Virus record (IMG/VR): IMGVR_UViG_2548876944_000014
Direction: 5' to 3' (one strand)
Source: a virus
Lineage: Duplodnaviria > Heunggongvirae > Uroviricota > Caudoviricetes
Length of the DNA: 12,588 nucleotides
A model generated the notes under the pieces. It had not been told where the DNA came from and did no database searches. It saw nothing but the letters and a program-made list of their open reading frames with translations. A program made the translations under genes and the position numbers. Of this stretch, positions 642-9,407 are shown one piece after another (position 1 is the first letter of the stretch; the number at the start of each line of letters is the position of its first letter).

Positions 642-726
642 ATGAAAATGCAAAAACTAGCCTTTTTCCGCGCCGCTCCCGCCCCGTGGCAGACCACTCC
701 ACCGGGAGGACCCGTAAAAAAGGCGG
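642..726. repeat. 85-bp GC-rich structured element, copy A (84/85 identical to copy B at 3177..3261)
   Basis: Direct comparison of the two stretches: a single T/C difference at position 16. Lies between the capsid stop and the terS start. Contains the inverted arms AGCCTTTTT and AAAAAGGCG around an internal CTCCCG...CGGGAG stem. Confidence 0.9.
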
Positions 727-738
727 CTGTCGCCGCCC
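716..738 (-). terminator. Rho-independent terminator after the protease-capsid gene
   Basis: On the minus strand GGCGGC-GACA-GCCGCC (perfect 6-bp GC stem) is followed by TTTTTT, 7 nt after the capsid stop codon. Overlaps the end of repeat copy A. Confidence 0.6.
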
Positions 739-744
739 TTGTTG

Positions 745-2658
745 TCATGCTCCACTCGATTTCAGTAATCCGCGATAATCGAGGGCCGCGACACCTGCAT
801 CTATGCGCACTTTCCAGGCGACACCATCAACAGTAAAGCCCACCTGCTCCTCAAGATATGGCGTATCCATACCATCAAGATAAGCGACTTCTATTGTGTC
901 CATCCCCTTAGCTGCGGCTACATACCATTCCTTGCTATTGGCCTTATCAAGACGTGGCTCAACAATTACTTCTGCCATATCTTTCACCACGTTAATGATG
1001 CCGGGGTTCTGATTGATAGTGCTCTCATCACCAACCGGAAAGACTGATGACGATGACAAAATGGCGCGACGCGCGGCAGATTCCAGCGCGGCAGGGACCA
1101 GAACAAAAGCAGGGGTAATATTCAGGGAGTCGCCGTTAGCATCCTCCTGGAGGCGCATCCGCTTACGGGCTTCATCAAGCCCCACCATGTCCATATCCTT
1201 CGCAATAAGATTTTTATGATCGGCATGGAATAACGCTTTACCATCCGTAAACTTGCCGTTGCTGGTTAACAGGAGATAAACCAGATTGCCAACTGTTCTG
1301 GCGGCTGCGCGTCCCATCGCCATGGGGATTGTAGTTAACTGGGTCAGGTCATCGTTGATAATGGCCTGACGGGTAACGGAAAAAATATTCCCGTACGTGG
1401 CCAGCGCAATAGGTACACCTTTATCGCTGGTGGTGATGTATTTATATTCCGCACCTTCCGGTACTTTATCCAGCTTTGAAAAACCATTCAGACCAACGCG
1501 CTTTGCTTCATGAAAGTTTGAAAGCGAACCGGTACGCGTCCATTTCTGGAACGTTTCGCCGCTGTCCTGCCAGCCTTTCAGTACAGATTTTTCAGCCCCA
1601 CCAGCCAGAATATGAGAAAAATCACTGCTGCTGTGTGTAAAAGCCGCATTAACAACCTGCGAGCGATTAATAAAACCGCTCACAGTGATACCACGATCAA
1701 CCAGTGATGCCTGGGCCATTTCAAAAAGGCTCATCATCGCGTAAGGGTTGCCTCGTTCAGGGCGTTCATACCCAAGACGGGAATAAAGCCCCTGACGAAT
1801 TGCATCACCTGTTATGTTTCCGTTTCCGGCATAGATATGAGGCGGGGTATTTTTATTGGATGGCGTGGACTCGCGCCCCAGCTCGTTCAACAGCTTTTCA
1901 CGGGCCATTTCCGGTGTACATGATGCATCTTCCAGACACGCCATTTTGATCCCGTCGTAACGACTGCCGAACAGGCTAAACACTTCACTTATTCCATTGA
2001 TGCGCTTCTGTTCATTACCAGCAATATTTGCCGCTCCCTGTGGCGGTGTAATCATTCCTTTAATGGTTTCCGGCATATGTAAAAAATCTCCTGTGCGTTT
2101 CGATTCAATTCGCGCCATTGCTCTGACGGATGGCAACAATTCATCAGCAAAACCGTGCTTAAGGCATTCTTTCCCATCCATCCAGGTTTCATCCTCCAGC
2201 ATGGCGGTAATTTCCTGTGCTGATTTGCCCGTTTTTCTGGCATAAGCAGGGATTAACACGGTTTCCACCTTATCCAGCAAATCAGCATAATCACGCATAT
2301 CGCCAGCATTTCCGCCAGAGATCCCCCACGGTTTATGGATCATCATCATGGCGTTCTCCGGCATCACTACACGATCGCCAGCCATTGCGACCACCGAAGC
2401 CATTGAAGCCGCAACACCATCGATATAAACCGTAATGTCTGCCGGATGATTCCGTAGCAGGTTATAGATGGCGATGCCTTCAAACACATCACCACCTGGT
2501 GAATGGATCCTCAGATTGATATGTGAAACATCGCCAAGGGCTTTCAGGTCTTCCGCGAACTGCTTTGCAGTAACACCGAAGCCGCCAATCTCCTCATAGA
2601 TAGATATATCCGCCGCTCCACGAACATCCGCCGCCTTAATGGTGTACCAGCGATTCAT
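745..2658 (-). CDS. Prohead protease (ClpP-like, peptidase S14) fused to HK97-fold major capsid protein, 637 aa
   Basis: N-terminal ~180 aa has ClpP-like signatures (HSPGGDV, GVAASMASVVAMAGD, MIHKPWG). The C-terminal ~450 aa has the length and C-terminal pattern of HK97-family major capsid proteins. ATG start at 2658..2656 overlaps the TAA of the upstream small ORF (TAATG). Confidence 0.8.
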   Translation of the reverse strand: MNRWYTIKAADVRGAADISIYEEIGGFGVTAKQFAEDLKALGDVSHINLRIHSPGGDVFEGIAIYNLLRNHPADITVYIDGVAASMASVVAMAGDRVVMPENAMMMIHKPWGISGGNAGDMRDYADLLDKVETVLIPAYARKTGKSAQEITAMLEDETWMDGKECLKHGFADELLPSVRAMARIESKRTGDFLHMPETIKGMITPPQGAANIAGNEQKRINGISEVFSLFGSRYDGIKMACLEDASCTPEMAREKLLNELGRESTPSNKNTPPHIYAGNGNITGDAIRQGLYSRLGYERPERGNPYAMMSLFEMAQASLVDRGITVSGFINRSQVVNAAFTHSSSDFSHILAGGAEKSVLKGWQDSGETFQKWTRTGSLSNFHEAKRVGLNGFSKLDKVPEGAEYKYITTSDKGVPIALATYGNIFSVTRQAIINDDLTQLTTIPMAMGRAAARTVGNLVYLLLTSNGKFTDGKALFHADHKNLIAKDMDMVGLDEARKRMRLQEDANGDSLNITPAFVLVPAALESAARRAILSSSSVFPVGDESTINQNPGIINVVKDMAEVIVEPRLDKANSKEWYVAAAKGMDTIEVAYLDGMDTPYLEEQVGFTVDGVAWKVRIDAGVAALDYRGLLKSSGA

Positions 2659-3176: not shown

Positions 3177-3261
3177 ATGAAAATGCAAAAACCAGCCTTT
3201 TTCCGCGCCGCTCCCGCCCCGTGGCAGACCACTCCACCGGGAGGACCCGTAAAAAAGGCGG
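3177..3261. repeat. 85-bp GC-rich structured element, copy B
   Basis: 84/85 identity with 642..726. Lies between the iteron origin and the terminator at 2967..2989. Flanking sequence diverges immediately on both sides. Confidence 0.9.
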
Positions 3262-3402
3262 ATTGCTCCGGCTTCTGTTACTCGTTGCTTAAAACGGTAT
3301 GTTATCCCCGTACGGATCATCATTCCCCGCCTGTTGTTTTGGTGTGCTTCGCTGTCATAGGCTTTATCTCACAGCAGTAAATTAAAATTTTTGCGTTTTA
3401 AC

Positions 3403-3631
3403 CCTTCACCTGTTCACCTTTTGATATTTTCTCTTTTAATTCATAATGTTAAGGGGTGAACAGTTTCACAAAAACTATTCACCAACTGTTCACCACTGTT
3501 CACCCTTGAAGCTCAATAAACAATCAAAAAGGTGAACAGTGAATAGTTTGGTGAACAGTTCATAAATAACTGTTCACCCTATAATATACTGATATAAAAG
3601 ATATTTATGACAGGGTGAACAGTGGTGAACA
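3403..3631. repeat. Replication origin iteron array: nine perfect TGTTCACC / GGTGAACA octamers plus degenerate copies (P4 ori/crr type I iteron type)
   Basis: Perfect octamers at 3411, 3487, 3497, 3571 (forward) and 3455, 3531, 3550, 3614, 3624 (reverse), with AT-rich spacers (e.g. 3580..3610). Immediately downstream of the P4-alpha-like replicase gene. TGTTCACC is the type I iteron bound by P4 alpha protein, recalled from the literature. Confidence 0.75.
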
Positions 3632-3645
3632 GTTATTCCATAAGT

Positions 3646-5463
3646 TTAATTTTTGCTATCGTCATTAGTGACCGATACACATGATGGCATCCAGTCTTCT
3701 GATTCCTCCGTCAGTGTCACGTTTGAACGCAAACCGTGCTTCGTTTTCCGTTTCATATACTCCCTGCCATATTCCGCCATTGCCCCCGGCATATCTTTAC
3801 CGAAGCGCGTCAGTGTTACAGGTTTACCAAACCCATGTGCCCTCATATAAGCCAGATAGGCATGATAGAGATACCTGCGTGGGCTGAATGGCACAATTTC
3901 AGCATTACCCACTAACAGGCCATCACACATTACCGACGCCATGAGATAGCCGCAGAAGTCCACCAGCGAATCCCCCTCTCGCTTTATCGCCAGTGCTTCT
4001 TCAGATTTCTGCTGCTCATATAACAGGCGTCTGGCTTCGTCCTGGTCAGCAAACCGTGTAAGCAGATGGCGAATCACTACCGCCAGCTCACCTTCTATTT
4101 TTTCCGCCAGCATTGGATCGCGTTCGTTCTCCGGTACAACTTCCGAAAAATTGAATATCACCCGACGACGTGAGATCCCCCCGCTGCGGTCACTGAATGA
4201 CATGGCGTTATTGTTAACCGCCAGCACTACTGCCGGAATACGCGTTGAGTAGGGGGCTTTGTGTTTCGGGTCAATTGCCACCTTGTCACCGCCTGTAATG
4301 GCCTTAATCCCTGCCCCATCACCAGCGTAGCGGGTCATATCCGGCATGATAATCAGCGAAAAGCCAACCACTAACGCGCGTTCCCTTGCATCTTCCAGCG
4401 CCTTCATGCTTGCCGATACTGTGTTGGCCTTACCCGCCAGCATGGTGCAAATCTCCGCCATCACGCTTTTACCACTTCCCCCTGGACCTGTTACCTCAAT
4501 GAATAACTGCCAGTCGTACCGGTTCGCCAGCACCATGAATAAGGCAGCCAGTACGCGATCCGCCTTGCGGTCATTCTCAGCCACCGAACGGCGTAACCAC
4601 TTCCAGAAATTCGGCGCATGTGTTGCCAGCGTTTCCCCCTCTGCTGGTGGGCTGAAAGGTAATTCACTGGCAATTAACAACCAGTCGTTTTTGTTATGCT
4701 CCCGAAAATTACCTGTTCTGGTATCAAATACCCCGTTACTGAATCCAATCAGGTTACGGGCTGTATTCCCCATTACAGGCAAACTTAACTTCATGGTATC
4801 GACCGCCGATTTAATGGCGTTCTGCGAATAGCTGATCTCCGCATCAATGAAAATCTGCGCCATAGCACGCTGTAACTCTTTATCCTGAACCGGCTCCCAT
4901 ACAATGCCGTTGTAATGGTGAACAGTGTCAGAGTCGGCATGAATCGCCAGTTCACCGCCATAATGTGCCAGGAGAACTTCGCCGCGTTGACTTGCTCCCA
5001 TCTGGTTAAGCGCCAGTGATGAAGCGTTATCGTCTTTTACCCGCTCTTTTTTCTTTACAGGCAGTTCAACTACCTTTTTCTTTTCCGCCAGCTCTCCCCG
5101 CTCACGTTCCAGATATTCGCGCCAGTTCTCCCGTTTCTGGCTGTGCATTCCTTCAGGATAATAATCAGCATCCCTGACACCTGCCGCTGCCAGTTTCTGC
5201 CCGATGGTATTAACAAGCCCCGGACGCAATAACCCCGCCTGGTAGAGACGCACGCGATAGCGTCCGTCCGGTACGATTTGCAGGTTGTCCAGTTCGGCAA
5301 GTTGTTGCTCTCCAAGCCAGACAGGTGGCACGTTATCGCCAGCCAGTCGCCCGTCCTGTTCCTGCCACTGCTTCGCATGTGCCCACGCATCACTACCCGC
5401 AAAAATGATGACTTCCGTCATTTTGTCACGCGGCTGGTGTTTTAAATTTGGCGCTTTTTTCAT
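3646..5463 (-). CDS. Replication initiator, P4 alpha-like: D5_N domain plus SF3 helicase (Walker A GPGGSGKS) plus C-terminal putative iteron-binding domain, 605 aa
   Basis: Walker A GPGGSGKS, Walker B-like LIIMPD, and a D5_N-like segment (IGFSNGVFDTRTGNF). ATG at 5463 has GGAGAGAG upstream and forms an ATGA overlap with the stop of the upstream ORF; the ORF-track start at 5478 is GTG. Iterons lie directly downstream. Confidence 0.85.
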   Translation of the reverse strand: MKKAPNLKHQPRDKMTEVIIFAGSDAWAHAKQWQEQDGRLAGDNVPPVWLGEQQLAELDNLQIVPDGRYRVRLYQAGLLRPGLVNTIGQKLAAAGVRDADYYPEGMHSQKRENWREYLERERGELAEKKKVVELPVKKKERVKDDNASSLALNQMGASQRGEVLLAHYGGELAIHADSDTVHHYNGIVWEPVQDKELQRAMAQIFIDAEISYSQNAIKSAVDTMKLSLPVMGNTARNLIGFSNGVFDTRTGNFREHNKNDWLLIASELPFSPPAEGETLATHAPNFWKWLRRSVAENDRKADRVLAALFMVLANRYDWQLFIEVTGPGGSGKSVMAEICTMLAGKANTVSASMKALEDARERALVVGFSLIIMPDMTRYAGDGAGIKAITGGDKVAIDPKHKAPYSTRIPAVVLAVNNNAMSFSDRSGGISRRRVIFNFSEVVPENERDPMLAEKIEGELAVVIRHLLTRFADQDEARRLLYEQQKSEEALAIKREGDSLVDFCGYLMASVMCDGLLVGNAEIVPFSPRRYLYHAYLAYMRAHGFGKPVTLTRFGKDMPGAMAEYGREYMKRKTKHGLRSNVTLTEESEDWMPSCVSVTNDDSKN

Positions 5464-7007: not shown

Positions 7008-7232
7008 CTACGCTGCCTTACCTGAATTAACGCGGTCACGGCTTTGCACCCAGTCCATAACTTCGGAAAGCAACCAGCCTACAGAACGCCCCCCAAGATT
7101 ACGGCGAGACGGAAAGCCCCCTTTCTTCTCCAGTTCGTAGCGTGTAGTACGGCTGACGCCTGTTAACTTACGACATTCATCCTCACGAATTACGCGATCT
7201 GTTAGTGATTGAAATTGTGTATTTTGATTCAT
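7008..7232 (-). CDS. alpA: AlpA-family (phage Xis/AlpA-type HTH) transcriptional regulator, 74 aa
   Basis: Small HTH protein with the AlpA-like C-terminus (RSVGWLLSEVMDWVQSR). ATG with GAGGGTG Shine-Dalgarno and its own AT-rich upstream region. Typical position next to int in P4-like and PICI elements. Confidence 0.8.
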   Translation of the reverse strand: MNQNTQFQSLTDRVIREDECRKLTGVSRTTRYELEKKGGFPSRRNLGGRSVGWLLSEVMDWVQSRDRVNSGKAA

Positions 7233-7335
7233 AAAAACACCCTCGAACGTAACCGAACAAGGGCATCTTATTTACCATAGCAGTTGGTGCAACATTGGAA
7301 AAATAAACTTTATTCTAATTTATCGTTCTCCATGA

Positions 7336-8190
7336 TTAATTTTCATTAGATAACATTTTTCTTATTTTTTCTAAAGAATCGCTGCGCATTATTTTTTCTA
7401 AGAAGGGTTTTACAGTCTGAGCAATAGCAAAGGTGTCCTTTTCACCATCAGGATACAAAGATACGGCAAGCACCCCTAATGAAATTTTTCTATCTGTAGA
7501 CAACTCCCAAGATAATAAGTCAATTAATGGGATTATCTTATAATCAATAATTTTACGTCGTATGCTCTCCCAACTTCCTGCAATTGGTTTGTCTGGCTCA
7601 ACAATTGAAAGTTCACTACGCCATTTTGGTAATAGTTTTGTAAACGCTTCAATCAACTCATCATCTCTGTTATGTAGTAAGTCAACAGAAACAAGCATAT
7701 TATCTAATGTATCAGAAAGGAGATTCACTGGTTCACGCATCACAGCCCAAAACATCCCATTATCTTCTGATATTAAACTTCCAACCATCTCATTATCTAT
7801 GATGATTGGTTTATCCTTCCAATATCCTCTTTCCGCAGTCAGTTTATTAATCATTGATATATCAAACCTTGTTACAGGTTTAATTCCATCATCATAACTT
7901 AGCTCAATTAACTTCGGCTGCACTTTATGGTCATATTCTTTTTGTTTATCACAAAACCAATCGTCTTCTTTCAGCTCTCCAAATGGATCCCCGTAATTAT
8001 TATGCAACGGGTATTCAGCACCAAACATAAAACCATATTCAGGCATCTCAGAATGTTTCATTGTTAAATCATCTTGTCGCCAATATAATTGGCGAAATAG
8101 ATCTTTATCCGACAAGTTTTCTAGGCAATCATATTTGCCTAAATCAAATGACTTTGGTAAATCTTTTTTACTATTTACTTTTTTCGTCAT
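7336..8190 (-). CDS. Hypothetical protein (284 aa), AT-rich cargo gene between int and alpA; function unknown, candidate accessory/defence gene
   Basis: Long clean ORF with visibly lower GC than its neighbours. ATG overlaps the int stop (ATGA), so it is probably co-transcribed with int. Acidic, no transmembrane segment, no Walker or nuclease motif recognised. Confidence 0.6.
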   Translation of the reverse strand: MTKKVNSKKDLPKSFDLGKYDCLENLSDKDLFRQLYWRQDDLTMKHSEMPEYGFMFGAEYPLHNNYGDPFGELKEDDWFCDKQKEYDHKVQPKLIELSYDDGIKPVTRFDISMINKLTAERGYWKDKPIIIDNEMVGSLISEDNGMFWAVMREPVNLLSDTLDNMLVSVDLLHNRDDELIEAFTKLLPKWRSELSIVEPDKPIAGSWESIRRKIIDYKIIPLIDLLSWELSTDRKISLGVLAVSLYPDGEKDTFAIAQTVKPFLEKIMRSDSLEKIRKMLSNEN

Positions 8191-9407
8191 TGTATCCCTC
8201 TCAATATCACAATATTTTCATTATATCCTGCAATCATATCAAGACGCTCAACCCATAGATTCAGTGCGTCCCGTTTCGCCTGCAAATAGCGTGAATGGTT
8301 ATAGGTTTTTTGCTGACCTGGCATCTGATGCGCTGTGATGTGCTCCACGATATGCGGATCGACACCTAAATCATTCAGCATAGTTGTAAACGTGTGTCGG
8401 AAATCATGCAGCGTCCAGTGTTCCTGCTTAAGCCGCTTATGCGCATTTCGTCCATATTGCGCCACCGTGGTATCTTTTTTCAGTTCGCCGAGTAATAACC
8501 CAGTGTGTGCGTTTTGCTCCACCAGCTTCTGAATGAACGGCAAAATGCCATCAGGAATAGGTCGGAATATTGTTACCTTCGTTTTGCTGTGCTCTTTTGG
8601 CACTGTCCACAACATTTCTTTCAGATCCCATTCTTTGATCTCTGAAAGTCTGATCTCTGCCGTTCTACACCCGAACACAATTAACAAGCGCATTAACGCA
8701 CTGTAATAGGGAGCGAACACATCACCATCAATAGCGCGTAGAATTTCTTTTAGTTCGCTGTTGCTGTGCACTCTCTCGCGGATTTCTGCTCTCTTACCCA
8801 CATCAGTAACGATCAAATCGTCCAGGGCGTTGCTAAACGCGTAGCGCCGCCTGCGGCAAAACTTTAGCGCCTGTTTGCATGTCTGCATGACATGGCCCGC
8901 TGCTACTGGTGCTTTTTTTCGTACGCGGTCAAAACATGCGATCCACTGCCTTGTATCACACTTATCAAGGGGAATTGCCCCGATATGGCAAATGATGTGC
9001 TTATCCATACGCTGCACCAGCTTTATGTAATCTTTGCGGTTATCCTTCGCGTATTCCTCCAGCCAGTAGTTAATCGCTTCCTTCACCGTAACGGGTTTTA
9101 GTGCTTCTTGTACTGTGGCGCACAACTCATACCGAGGGTTTTTACCCTCAGCCAGCCATGCCCGGCACTGTGTTCGCTTTTCCCTTGCAGATTTCAGCGA
9201 CAATTCCGGGTAAGCCCCCAGCTTTAACCGCTCTGCGGCAACCTCACGGCCTCCCGTTCGGTACCGGAAATACCAGGTTAATTTGCCTCCCTTTGAGTGT
9301 TTAATCTCCAGCCCGCCCCCGTCGGAGTAAAAACGCTCTTTTTCTGCCTGGACAGCCACCAATTTTTTTAACGTTGAATCGCTCAGTTTGTTTAGTGCTT
9401 TTCCCAC
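8187..9407 (-). CDS. int: Tyrosine recombinase / integrase, P4 family (N-terminal DUF4102 arm-binding domain), 406 aa
   Basis: N-terminal DGGGL...WYFRYR...LGAYPELSLKSAREKR signature of P4-type integrases. Catalytic HDFRHTF box and C-terminal Tyr region. GTG start with AGAGGA Shine-Dalgarno. Lies at the element edge facing the chromosome. Confidence 0.9.
   Translation of the reverse strand: MGKALNKLSDSTLKKLVAVQAEKERFYSDGGGLEIKHSKGGKLTWYFRYRTGGREVAAERLKLGAYPELSLKSAREKRTQCRAWLAEGKNPRYELCATVQEALKPVTVKEAINYWLEEYAKDNRKDYIKLVQRMDKHIICHIGAIPLDKCDTRQWIACFDRVRKKAPVAAGHVMQTCKQALKFCRRRRYAFSNALDDLIVTDVGKRAEIRERVHSNSELKEILRAIDGDVFAPYYSALMRLLIVFGCRTAEIRLSEIKEWDLKEMLWTVPKEHSKTKVTIFRPIPDGILPFIQKLVEQNAHTGLLLGELKKDTTVAQYGRNAHKRLKQEHWTLHDFRHTFTTMLNDLGVDPHIVEHITAHQMPGQQKTYNHSRYLQAKRDALNLWVERLDMIAGYNENIVILRGIQ

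Follow-up and report, generated by a model that had tools for sequence, protein, structure and literature searches.

A DUF6387 gene in the exchange slot between int and alpA of an Escherichia coli PICI-type satellite, a possible module of the AlpA switch

The master repressors Stl/Rpr of SaPIs have their genes beside int within the regulatory region, and they are very divergent in sequence yet keep this position (background on Stl in PMC6092414). The DUF6387 family examined here resembles them in both respects. It may also resemble them in its proposed architecture, in which a constant DNA-binding part would be joined to a variable part able to recognize a protein of the helper phage. However, Stl/Rpr share neither sequence similarity nor significant fold similarity with DUF6387. 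Stl is divergent from the operon it controls, whereas DUF6387 is co-directional with alpA in every locus. Furthermore, Stl is required for quiescence, while DUF6387 is dispensable in some elements, and an abundant lineage lacks any gene at the corresponding position. Induction of Gram-negative PICIs reportedly proceeds through activation of AlpA (PMC6092414). Judged by analogy, Stl is the closest counterpart of DUF6387 in position and diversity, but the likeness fails in divergent orientation and in essentiality.

A second point of comparison is offered by the accessory genes of satellites. PICI 5'-end genes such as Tai and the cargo of P4/P2 hotspots are AT-rich genes that are exchanged in a defined satellite slot, as is the gene described below, and some PICI, P4, and P2 accessory genes are single non-enzymatic proteins (PMC11364771, PMC9122126). 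The locations differ: Tai genes occupy phage morons or sites downstream of pri, and P4 carries its hotspot close to cos, not between int and alpA. The P4/P2 hotspots also accommodate many systems of very different sizes, whereas in the int-alpA slot we found only three families, all of one size, and no recognized system. Satellite hotspot cargo is the closest analogy with regard to slot variation, but not with regard to diversity of cargo.

The excisionase-type regulators AlpA, Vis, and SEN1998 are neighbors of DUF6387 within the same module. AlpA is the partner proposed below for DUF6387, but it is not a homolog: AlpA has ~70 aa, whereas the DUF6387 protein has 284 aa and is acidic. Excisionases typically have ~60-100 aa and are usually basic winged-helix proteins that bind att arms, and a 284-aa protein with a pI of 4.97 falls outside this description. 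The role of directionality factor is filled by the adjacent alpA (PMC8844411).

The DUF6387 gene and its host element

The gene is located on the minus strand of the window, by which we mean the whole stretch of 12,588 nucleotides that was analyzed (Table 1). The initial annotation described a 284-aa open reading frame between int and alpA whose ATG overlaps the int stop codon, and this description is confirmed. The ATG of the gene (8190-8188) and the TGA of int (8189-8187) share the sequence ATGA, and the Shine-Dalgarno sequence GAGGG is located 5 nt upstream, in the last int codons. The lower GC content that had been noted for the gene is also evident, at 0.338 (GC3 of 0.274) compared with 0.479 for int, 0.489 for alpA, and 0.475 for the remaining island.

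Table 1. Coordinates of features in the window
Feature	Position	Strand	Description
DUF6387 family gene	7336..8190	-	284 aa, acidic, pI 4.97; conserved N-terminal motif (residues 1-38), variable middle, conserved helical C-terminal domain (~160-284)
Tyrosine integrase gene int	8187..9407	-	Arm-DNA-bind_3 and Phage_integrase domains; stop codon overlaps DUF6387 start codon
alpA, AlpA-family regulator gene	7008..7232	-	Directly follows DUF6387 in nearly all loci examined
Shine-Dalgarno sequence GAGGG of the DUF6387 gene	8196..8200	-	Within the int 3' end; read directly from the sequence
Exchangeable cassette	7263..8205	-	Last ~5 int codons with Shine-Dalgarno sequence, slot open reading frame, ~70 nt of 3' flank
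Hairpin and U-run	7233..7270	-	Conserved; directly 5' of the alpA ATG; alpA Shine-Dalgarno sequence GAGGG within the 3' arm; lies between the int-DUF6387 unit and alpA
GGTGAACAGTT repeats	3432..3647		Clustered direct and inverted repeats just downstream of the primase gene
ClpP-capsid fusion gene	745..2658	-	637-aa protein; ClpP-like prohead protease fused to major capsid protein
94-nt direct repeat, first copy	642..735		Downstream of the capsid-fusion gene
94-nt direct repeat, second copy	3177..3270		Downstream of the primase/ori region

When the whole protein was compared with Pfam models, residues 3-272 matched positions 2-252 of the 258 positions of DUF6387 (PF19924) with a score of 108.8 bits (E 4.6e-31), which is above the gathering cut-off of 28.9 bits. 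A search of a collection of 5.8 billion proteins returned 57 homologs with identities of 34-99%. The RefSeq name of the product is 'DUF6387 family protein', and the gene is present in 50 of 5,426 complete E. coli genomes at a nucleotide identity of ~99% or higher. Given the full-length family match, the homologs, and the RefSeq annotation, the open reading frame is a real gene and not a chance occurrence.

The family is large. An exhaustive profile search recovered 1,262 clusters at 50% identity with E values up to 1e-3 and 417 with E values up to 1e-10, and nearly all of these clusters are single-domain proteins of 250-330 aa. Alignments reveal a conserved N-terminal motif (LPxxFxLxxY...DLxxQLxxR), a highly variable middle, and a conserved C-terminal region of ~120 residues (LLPxWRxEL ... 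YxIIPxIDLxxW ... LFPDGE ... QTIKPF). In an alignment of 48 homologs (A1), the mean frequency of the commonest residue is 0.79 for positions 1-38, 0.51-0.56 for positions 39-205, and 0.69 for positions 206-284. The protein is acidic and helical with a weak HTH-like domain, and its C-terminal domain may be winged-helix-like. No solved fold matches the full-length model.

Searches of the window protein against PADLOC (PADLOC-DB v2.0.0), NCBIfam, and the PDB (phmmer and two profile searches) were all empty, which agrees with the earlier observation that no known defense, nuclease, NTPase, or membrane motif can be recognized; the same holds for any effector or transmembrane feature. Even at E values up to 1, PADLOC gave no match for the window protein, for two further DUF6387 members, or for the variant carried by locus L004. 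The match in PHROGs is to a family of unknown function only, and Pfam returned DUF6387 alone. In the literature searched, DUF6387 was found only in gene tables, beside an AlpA gene in a genomic island, and no published phage-resistance test was found. Neither the Pfam accession nor the RefSeq accession of the protein retrieved a publication from it. The gene had been presented as uncharacterized; it is correct that no function is assigned, but the protein belongs to a sequence family that is already catalogued, for which sequence comparison detects no relative of known function.

An identical copy of the island is present in E. coli CUVET16-819, where ~10 kb are inserted between thiM and rcnR. 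Along the minus strand, int, DUF6387, and alpA are followed by a YlcI/YnfO gene on the opposite strand, an Icd-like gene, a hypothetical gene, a DUF4222 gene, a D5-type primase gene, iterons, a ClpP-protease/major-capsid fusion gene, and a DUF1441 gene. The iteron cluster, built of GGTGAACAGTT repeats, is probably the replication origin of the satellite. Gram-negative PICIs are organized into an integration zone, a replication zone, and a late zone (PMC10111431, PMC6092414). Because its int-alpA-primase-capsid layout follows this plan, the element is assigned as a Gram-negative PICI-type satellite; int, AlpA, the D5-type primase, the iterons downstream of the primase gene, and the ClpP-capsid fusion are all features by which PICIs are recognized. 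It is not a full cfPICI, since the island annotation contains no portal or large terminase gene. The setting had been described as P4-like or PICI-like, and only the second term is accurate: psu, delta, and sid were found neither in the RefSeq annotation of the identical island nor in Pfam scans of the larger open reading frames, and thus the element is not P4-like.

The fusion of the ClpP-like prohead protease to the major capsid protein and the DUF1441 gene are the sole morphogenesis genes in this ~10-kb island, and the same module is also found in Klebsiella elements (L019-L021). As no portal or large terminase gene is annotated, the element fits neither the classical PICI nor the full cfPICI. 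We also observed a GC-rich 94-nt direct repeat, whose two copies are 95% identical and do not match any Rfam family.

Exchange of genes between int and alpA

Nucleotide similarity between the window and sister elements that carry other slot genes breaks off at 8201-8206 and again at 7262-7269. These sister elements, likewise located between thiM and rcnR, encode Int proteins that are 97% identical and AlpA proteins that are 86-92% identical to those of the window, yet the gene between them differs. The slot of L004 carries a 331-aa DUF6387 protein with only 35% identity to that of the window. The slots of L002 and L003 carry unrelated proteins of 264 and 257 aa (family B). In further loci, the slot of L037 carries an unrelated 266-aa protein (family C) after a different int, and the slot of L036 is empty, with 410 nt separating int and alpA. 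The opposite discordance is observed in Enterobacter (L005), where Int is 55% identical but DUF6387 is 70% identical. All slot occupants measured are lower in GC content (0.32-0.39) than their int genes (~0.49), and their start codons all overlap the int stop codon. Profile-profile comparison indicates that DUF6387, family B, and family C are mutually unrelated; the possibility that families B and C are diverged DUF6387 proteins was rejected at hhalign probabilities of 0.1-1%. From these sequence comparisons, the int-alpA interval is a real exchange slot.

Family B (L002:9316-10110(-), L003:9316-10089(-), and L035:5322-6095(-); alignment A2) comprises proteins of 250-264 aa without a Pfam match and includes a member in E. 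coli O157:H7. The family B genes of L002 and L003 end with a stop codon located within a 9-bp inverted repeat (TGATATCAC...GTGATATCA). The sole PADLOC match for this family is a weak one to mad1 (E 0.015). By eye, its N terminus gave the impression of an AlpA-like HTH, for which an hhalign comparison with AlpA gave no support. Family C proteins (L037:5544-6344(-) and L102:1428-2454) have ~266 aa and start on the int stop codon, and L037 has an additional HTH_17 gene between family C and alpA. Two diverged DUF6387 genes are arranged in tandem between int and alpA in Providencia (L006:8007-9684). The published open reading frame in the int-alpA slot of EcCIMP1, EcCIMP1_002, was considered as a DUF6387 gene and rejected; it is a small, unrelated open reading frame.

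To survey the slot, 80 IMG/VR loci were chosen by AlpA similarity alone, and a same-strand int is located upstream in 65 of them. Family B occupies the slot in 22 of these loci and is the commonest alternative to DUF6387, which is present in 21. The slot is empty in 20, and the remaining two carry a family C-like gene and a degenerate family B gene. This distribution bears out the expectation that the gene is variable and not conserved in all related elements. Dereplication at 90% nucleotide identity left 27 slot sequences, which comprise 9 DUF6387, 16 family B, 1 empty, and 1 unclassified cluster (the family C-like L102 together with the degenerate family B L157). Filled slots measure 807-1071 nt without exception, and none of the 65 loci holds a recognized defense system. 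The same mosaics carry alternative primase modules (D5, AAA_25, DUF927) and alternative capsid modules.

Since the slot contains one of three families or nothing, with a uniform size and no recognized defense system, it does not look like a classical defense hotspot or an open cargo bay. The pattern more closely resembles the non-orthologous replacement of one module by others of the same size, a conclusion that is provisional because the survey was limited to AlpA relatives of at least ~57% identity in IMG/VR. The initial annotation had regarded the interval as a hotspot for variable anti-phage cargo. That it is a site of exchange holds true, with different occupants beside Int proteins that are 97% identical, but three families of 0.8-1.07 kb and no defense system among the surveyed loci do not fit the remainder of that description.

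Genes of defense type are found elsewhere in related Klebsiella satellites. A HEPN-domain gene (L019:11151-11864(-)) lies between helicase and capsid genes, and an Abi_C gene (L020:4655-5419(-)) lies between two tandem satellite copies, just before the second int. The latter locus (L020:1-14876) apparently consists of two tandem satellites, in which another int-DUF6387-alpA unit comes after the ClpP-capsid/DUF1441 module.

Linkage to alpA and the hairpin in the alpA leader

DUF6387 is positioned immediately upstream of a same-strand alpA-like gene, at a distance of 43-205 nt, in essentially every intact locus (~60 loci plus those of a 293-aa subfamily). Loci of Enterobacterales invariably show the order int, DUF6387, alpA, and members with as little as 38% identity retain the 4-nt overlap with int; an overlap of int stop and start codon is seen in all three slot families. 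The 293-aa subfamily, which is 22-28% identical and very common in Salmonella and E. coli/E. albertii, has the same order in other PICI types, with a gap of 143-333 nt after int and no ATGA coupling. A Neptunomonas locus has the order int, DUF6387, and then an HTH_17 gene.

In several elements int is located elsewhere. In Haemophilus and Avibacterium satellites, DUF6387 and alpA follow the packaging genes, and int resides at the far end on the opposite strand, beside tRNA-Leu. A Klebsiella IncF plasmid carries an EARL-like island in which a divergent int lies beside DUF6387 and alpA. In ICEKp258.2, the DUF6387-then-alpA pair is found at the end of the element, and a Serratia island has the same order. 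The only exceptions to the pairing with alpA are one truncated copy beside IS fragments and two GC-richer, distant loci, where DUF6387 adjoins a cI/XRE-like repressor gene. These observations suggest that the constant partner of DUF6387 is alpA rather than int. Judging from gene order and from the existence of a family member in Salmonella Enteritidis, the DUF6387 neighbor of the AlpA-type gene in ROD21 is possibly SEN1999. The C-terminal domain of DUF6387 was also considered as an AlpA homolog, and this candidate was rejected at an hhalign probability of 0.1.

Among 50,697 phage records, DUF6387 gave 2 spurious matches, and among 72,556 plasmid records it gave 4, including one to a 16.9-kb circular satellite-like replicon. 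The family thus appears to be essentially confined to satellites and genomic islands. The circular replicon (L023; CP018459.1, 16,971 bp), deposited as a Klebsiella plasmid, carries int, DUF6387, alpA, and capsid, terminase, and head-tail adaptor genes, and it looks like an excised cfPICI-like satellite that was assembled as a plasmid.

The alpA leader of the window can form a hairpin of -17.2 kcal/mol (z = -4.0 relative to shuffled sequences). Folding of individual sequences yielded equivalent hairpins before alpA in L002, L004, L006-L010, L013, L018, L053, L058, L067, and L068, most of them with a U-run and some without. The stems vary between loci on both arms, the pairs of 5' and 3' arms being GCCCUYG and CGAGGGY, GUCCUCG and CGAGGAC, GCUCUCG and CGAGAGC, CCUUGUU and AACAAGG, CCCUCAC and GUGAGGG, CCUCCAC and GUGGAGG, and GCCUCGU and ACGAGGC. 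No Rfam family matches the hairpin of the window. This element may be a terminator or a translational operator acting on the master activator of Gram-negative PICIs. The arrangement would be most simply explained if int and DUF6387 were expressed as one unit and alpA were held off by termination and/or by masking of its Shine-Dalgarno sequence.

The initial annotation had proposed constitutive co-expression of the gene with int. The ATGA overlap on which this proposal was built is present here, but joint expression is a prediction from that overlap, and the coupling is absent from the 293-aa subfamily. A scan for promoters and terminators returned fewer promoter-like sites than shuffled controls and hence is uninformative with regard to a separate promoter. 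When 9-mers of the spacer between DUF6387 and alpA were sought elsewhere in the island, only scattered single matches were found. Palindromes in the spacers of the various loci are short, AT-rich, and not decisive, and no operator was identified with confidence.

Possible roles of the DUF6387 protein

The hypothesis that we favor, with a probability of about 0.4, is that DUF6387 belongs to the integration zone and acts, without enzymatic activity, on the AlpA switch. DUF6387 would be a binding protein that forms one module of this zone. It would probably be made together with Int from the quiescent island by means of the ATGA overlap, while the hairpin would insulate it from alpA. Its target might then be the AlpA/Int switch of the island itself, with the protein serving as a brake on alpA, an immunity determinant, or a sensor of the helper phage. 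Its constant part would consist of the N-terminal motif and the winged-helix-like C-terminal domain, and the hypervariable middle would set the specificity of binding to DNA or protein. DUF6387, family B, and family C would represent three non-homologous alternatives of the same size, like the alternative primase and capsid modules.

This role is favored because the linkage to alpA spans island classes and deep divergence (22-28% identity between subfamilies), and it holds even where int is located elsewhere, as in Haemophilus, Avibacterium, the EARL-like island, and ICEKp258.2. The narrow set of same-sized slot alternatives supports a life-cycle module, and the confinement of the family to islands likewise supports a role in the switch. 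Further support comes from the cassette, which carries ~70 nt upstream of alpA, and from the weakly HTH-like C-terminal domain. Where distant members adjoin a cI/XRE-like repressor gene, they are again beside a regulatory switch.

Some observations count against an action of DUF6387 on the switch. AT-richness and variation in presence and absence are equally typical of defense cargo. Nearly the same Int and AlpA proteins function beside unrelated slot proteins, a point against a specific protein-protein partnership, and the search for an operator yielded none with confidence. In EcCICFT073, the best-studied PICI, alpA appears to lie directly after int, and helper phage activates an alpA reporter of this element in lysogens in a study that mentions no slot protein (PMC6092414). 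Given this response and the empty slot of an abundant lineage, DUF6387 is not essential for induction.

If the favored hypothesis is extended, DUF6387, with families B and C as analogs, might supply the Stl-like component that has been missing from Gram-negative PICIs and related AlpA-type islands. Carried on a cassette and made with Int, it would hold alpA off, and its middle domain would recognize a specific helper protein. We regard this extension as speculative and rather improbable. If it is true, then swapping the cassette would re-target the satellite to a different helper.

The initial annotation instead inferred, from context, that the gene is defense cargo. Stated fully, this alternative holds that DUF6387 is a single-gene anti-phage or anti-satellite exclusion factor, an accessory gene that is expressed constitutively with int at a low level in the quiescent island. 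Without a catalytic motif, such a factor would most likely bind a phage component, by analogy with PICI-encoded Tai. The AT-rich, exchangeable cassette that comes and goes among near-identical elements would be expected of such a gene, as would a hypervariable middle between conserved ends. Accessory and immune genes of PICIs have been reported in the interval from int to the regulator or at the 5' end (PMC10085698; PMC11364771), and the HEPN and Abi_C genes at other positions of related satellites indicate that defense cargo occurs. In addition, the gene is found in a prophage accessory region in the two distant loci, one of which (L071) has a RelE-like open reading frame nearby, as judged by eye. 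However, PADLOC was empty for the window protein and four other slot proteins except for the weak mad1 match of family B (E 0.015), and no effector, nuclease, NTPase, or transmembrane feature accompanies the gene. Three families of uniform size, with a recognized defense system in 0 of 65 loci, are not what a defense slot would be expected to contain, and hardly any members occur in phages and plasmids, contexts in which defense genes commonly move about. We consider exclusion less probable than an action on the switch, yet a serious rival to it. The genomic context from which defense cargo was proposed points at least as strongly to the alpA switch, and the original interpretation is partly supported.

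Alternatively, DUF6387 might be an accessory factor directed at the host or at another mobile element, such as a regulator of host or prophage genes or an anti-defense protein, with no part in the island cycle or in phage exclusion. PICIs do carry regulators of this kind, for example the PerC-like protein of EcCIMP1 (PMC11773190), and an acidic, helical protein with a weak HTH-like domain whose gene is dispensable in some lineages would be compatible with this function. Such a factor is nevertheless improbable, since it leaves unexplained both the strict adjacency to alpA across island classes and the replacement by alternatives of the same size. Least probable of all is a cofactor that is translationally coupled to Int and biases integration against excision: although the gene is within the integration zone (PMC10111431) and its ATGA overlap persists at 38% identity and in all three slot families, the coupling is lost in the 293-aa subfamily (143-333 nt after int), int lies far away or in divergent orientation in the islands of Pasteurellaceae and of the EARL type, one and the same Int functions alongside unrelated slot proteins or none at all, and AlpA-type proteins already serve as the directionality factor (PMC8844411).

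The silencing of Gram-negative PICIs and the switching of alpA by helper phages are still described as unresolved (PMC6092414). The two best-studied PICIs belong to the lineage with an empty slot, and therefore the slot proteins have never been examined. DUF6387 is present in satellites, in pathogenicity islands of the ROD21/ICEKp258.2 type, and in related elements of clinically important Enterobacterales. The family is a concrete candidate for a new regulatory layer on island mobility, which would accord with the favored action on the AlpA switch, or for a new non-enzymatic defense protein. Either role would give a function to a widespread DUF and would explain the recurrent exchange of cassettes at the int 3' end.
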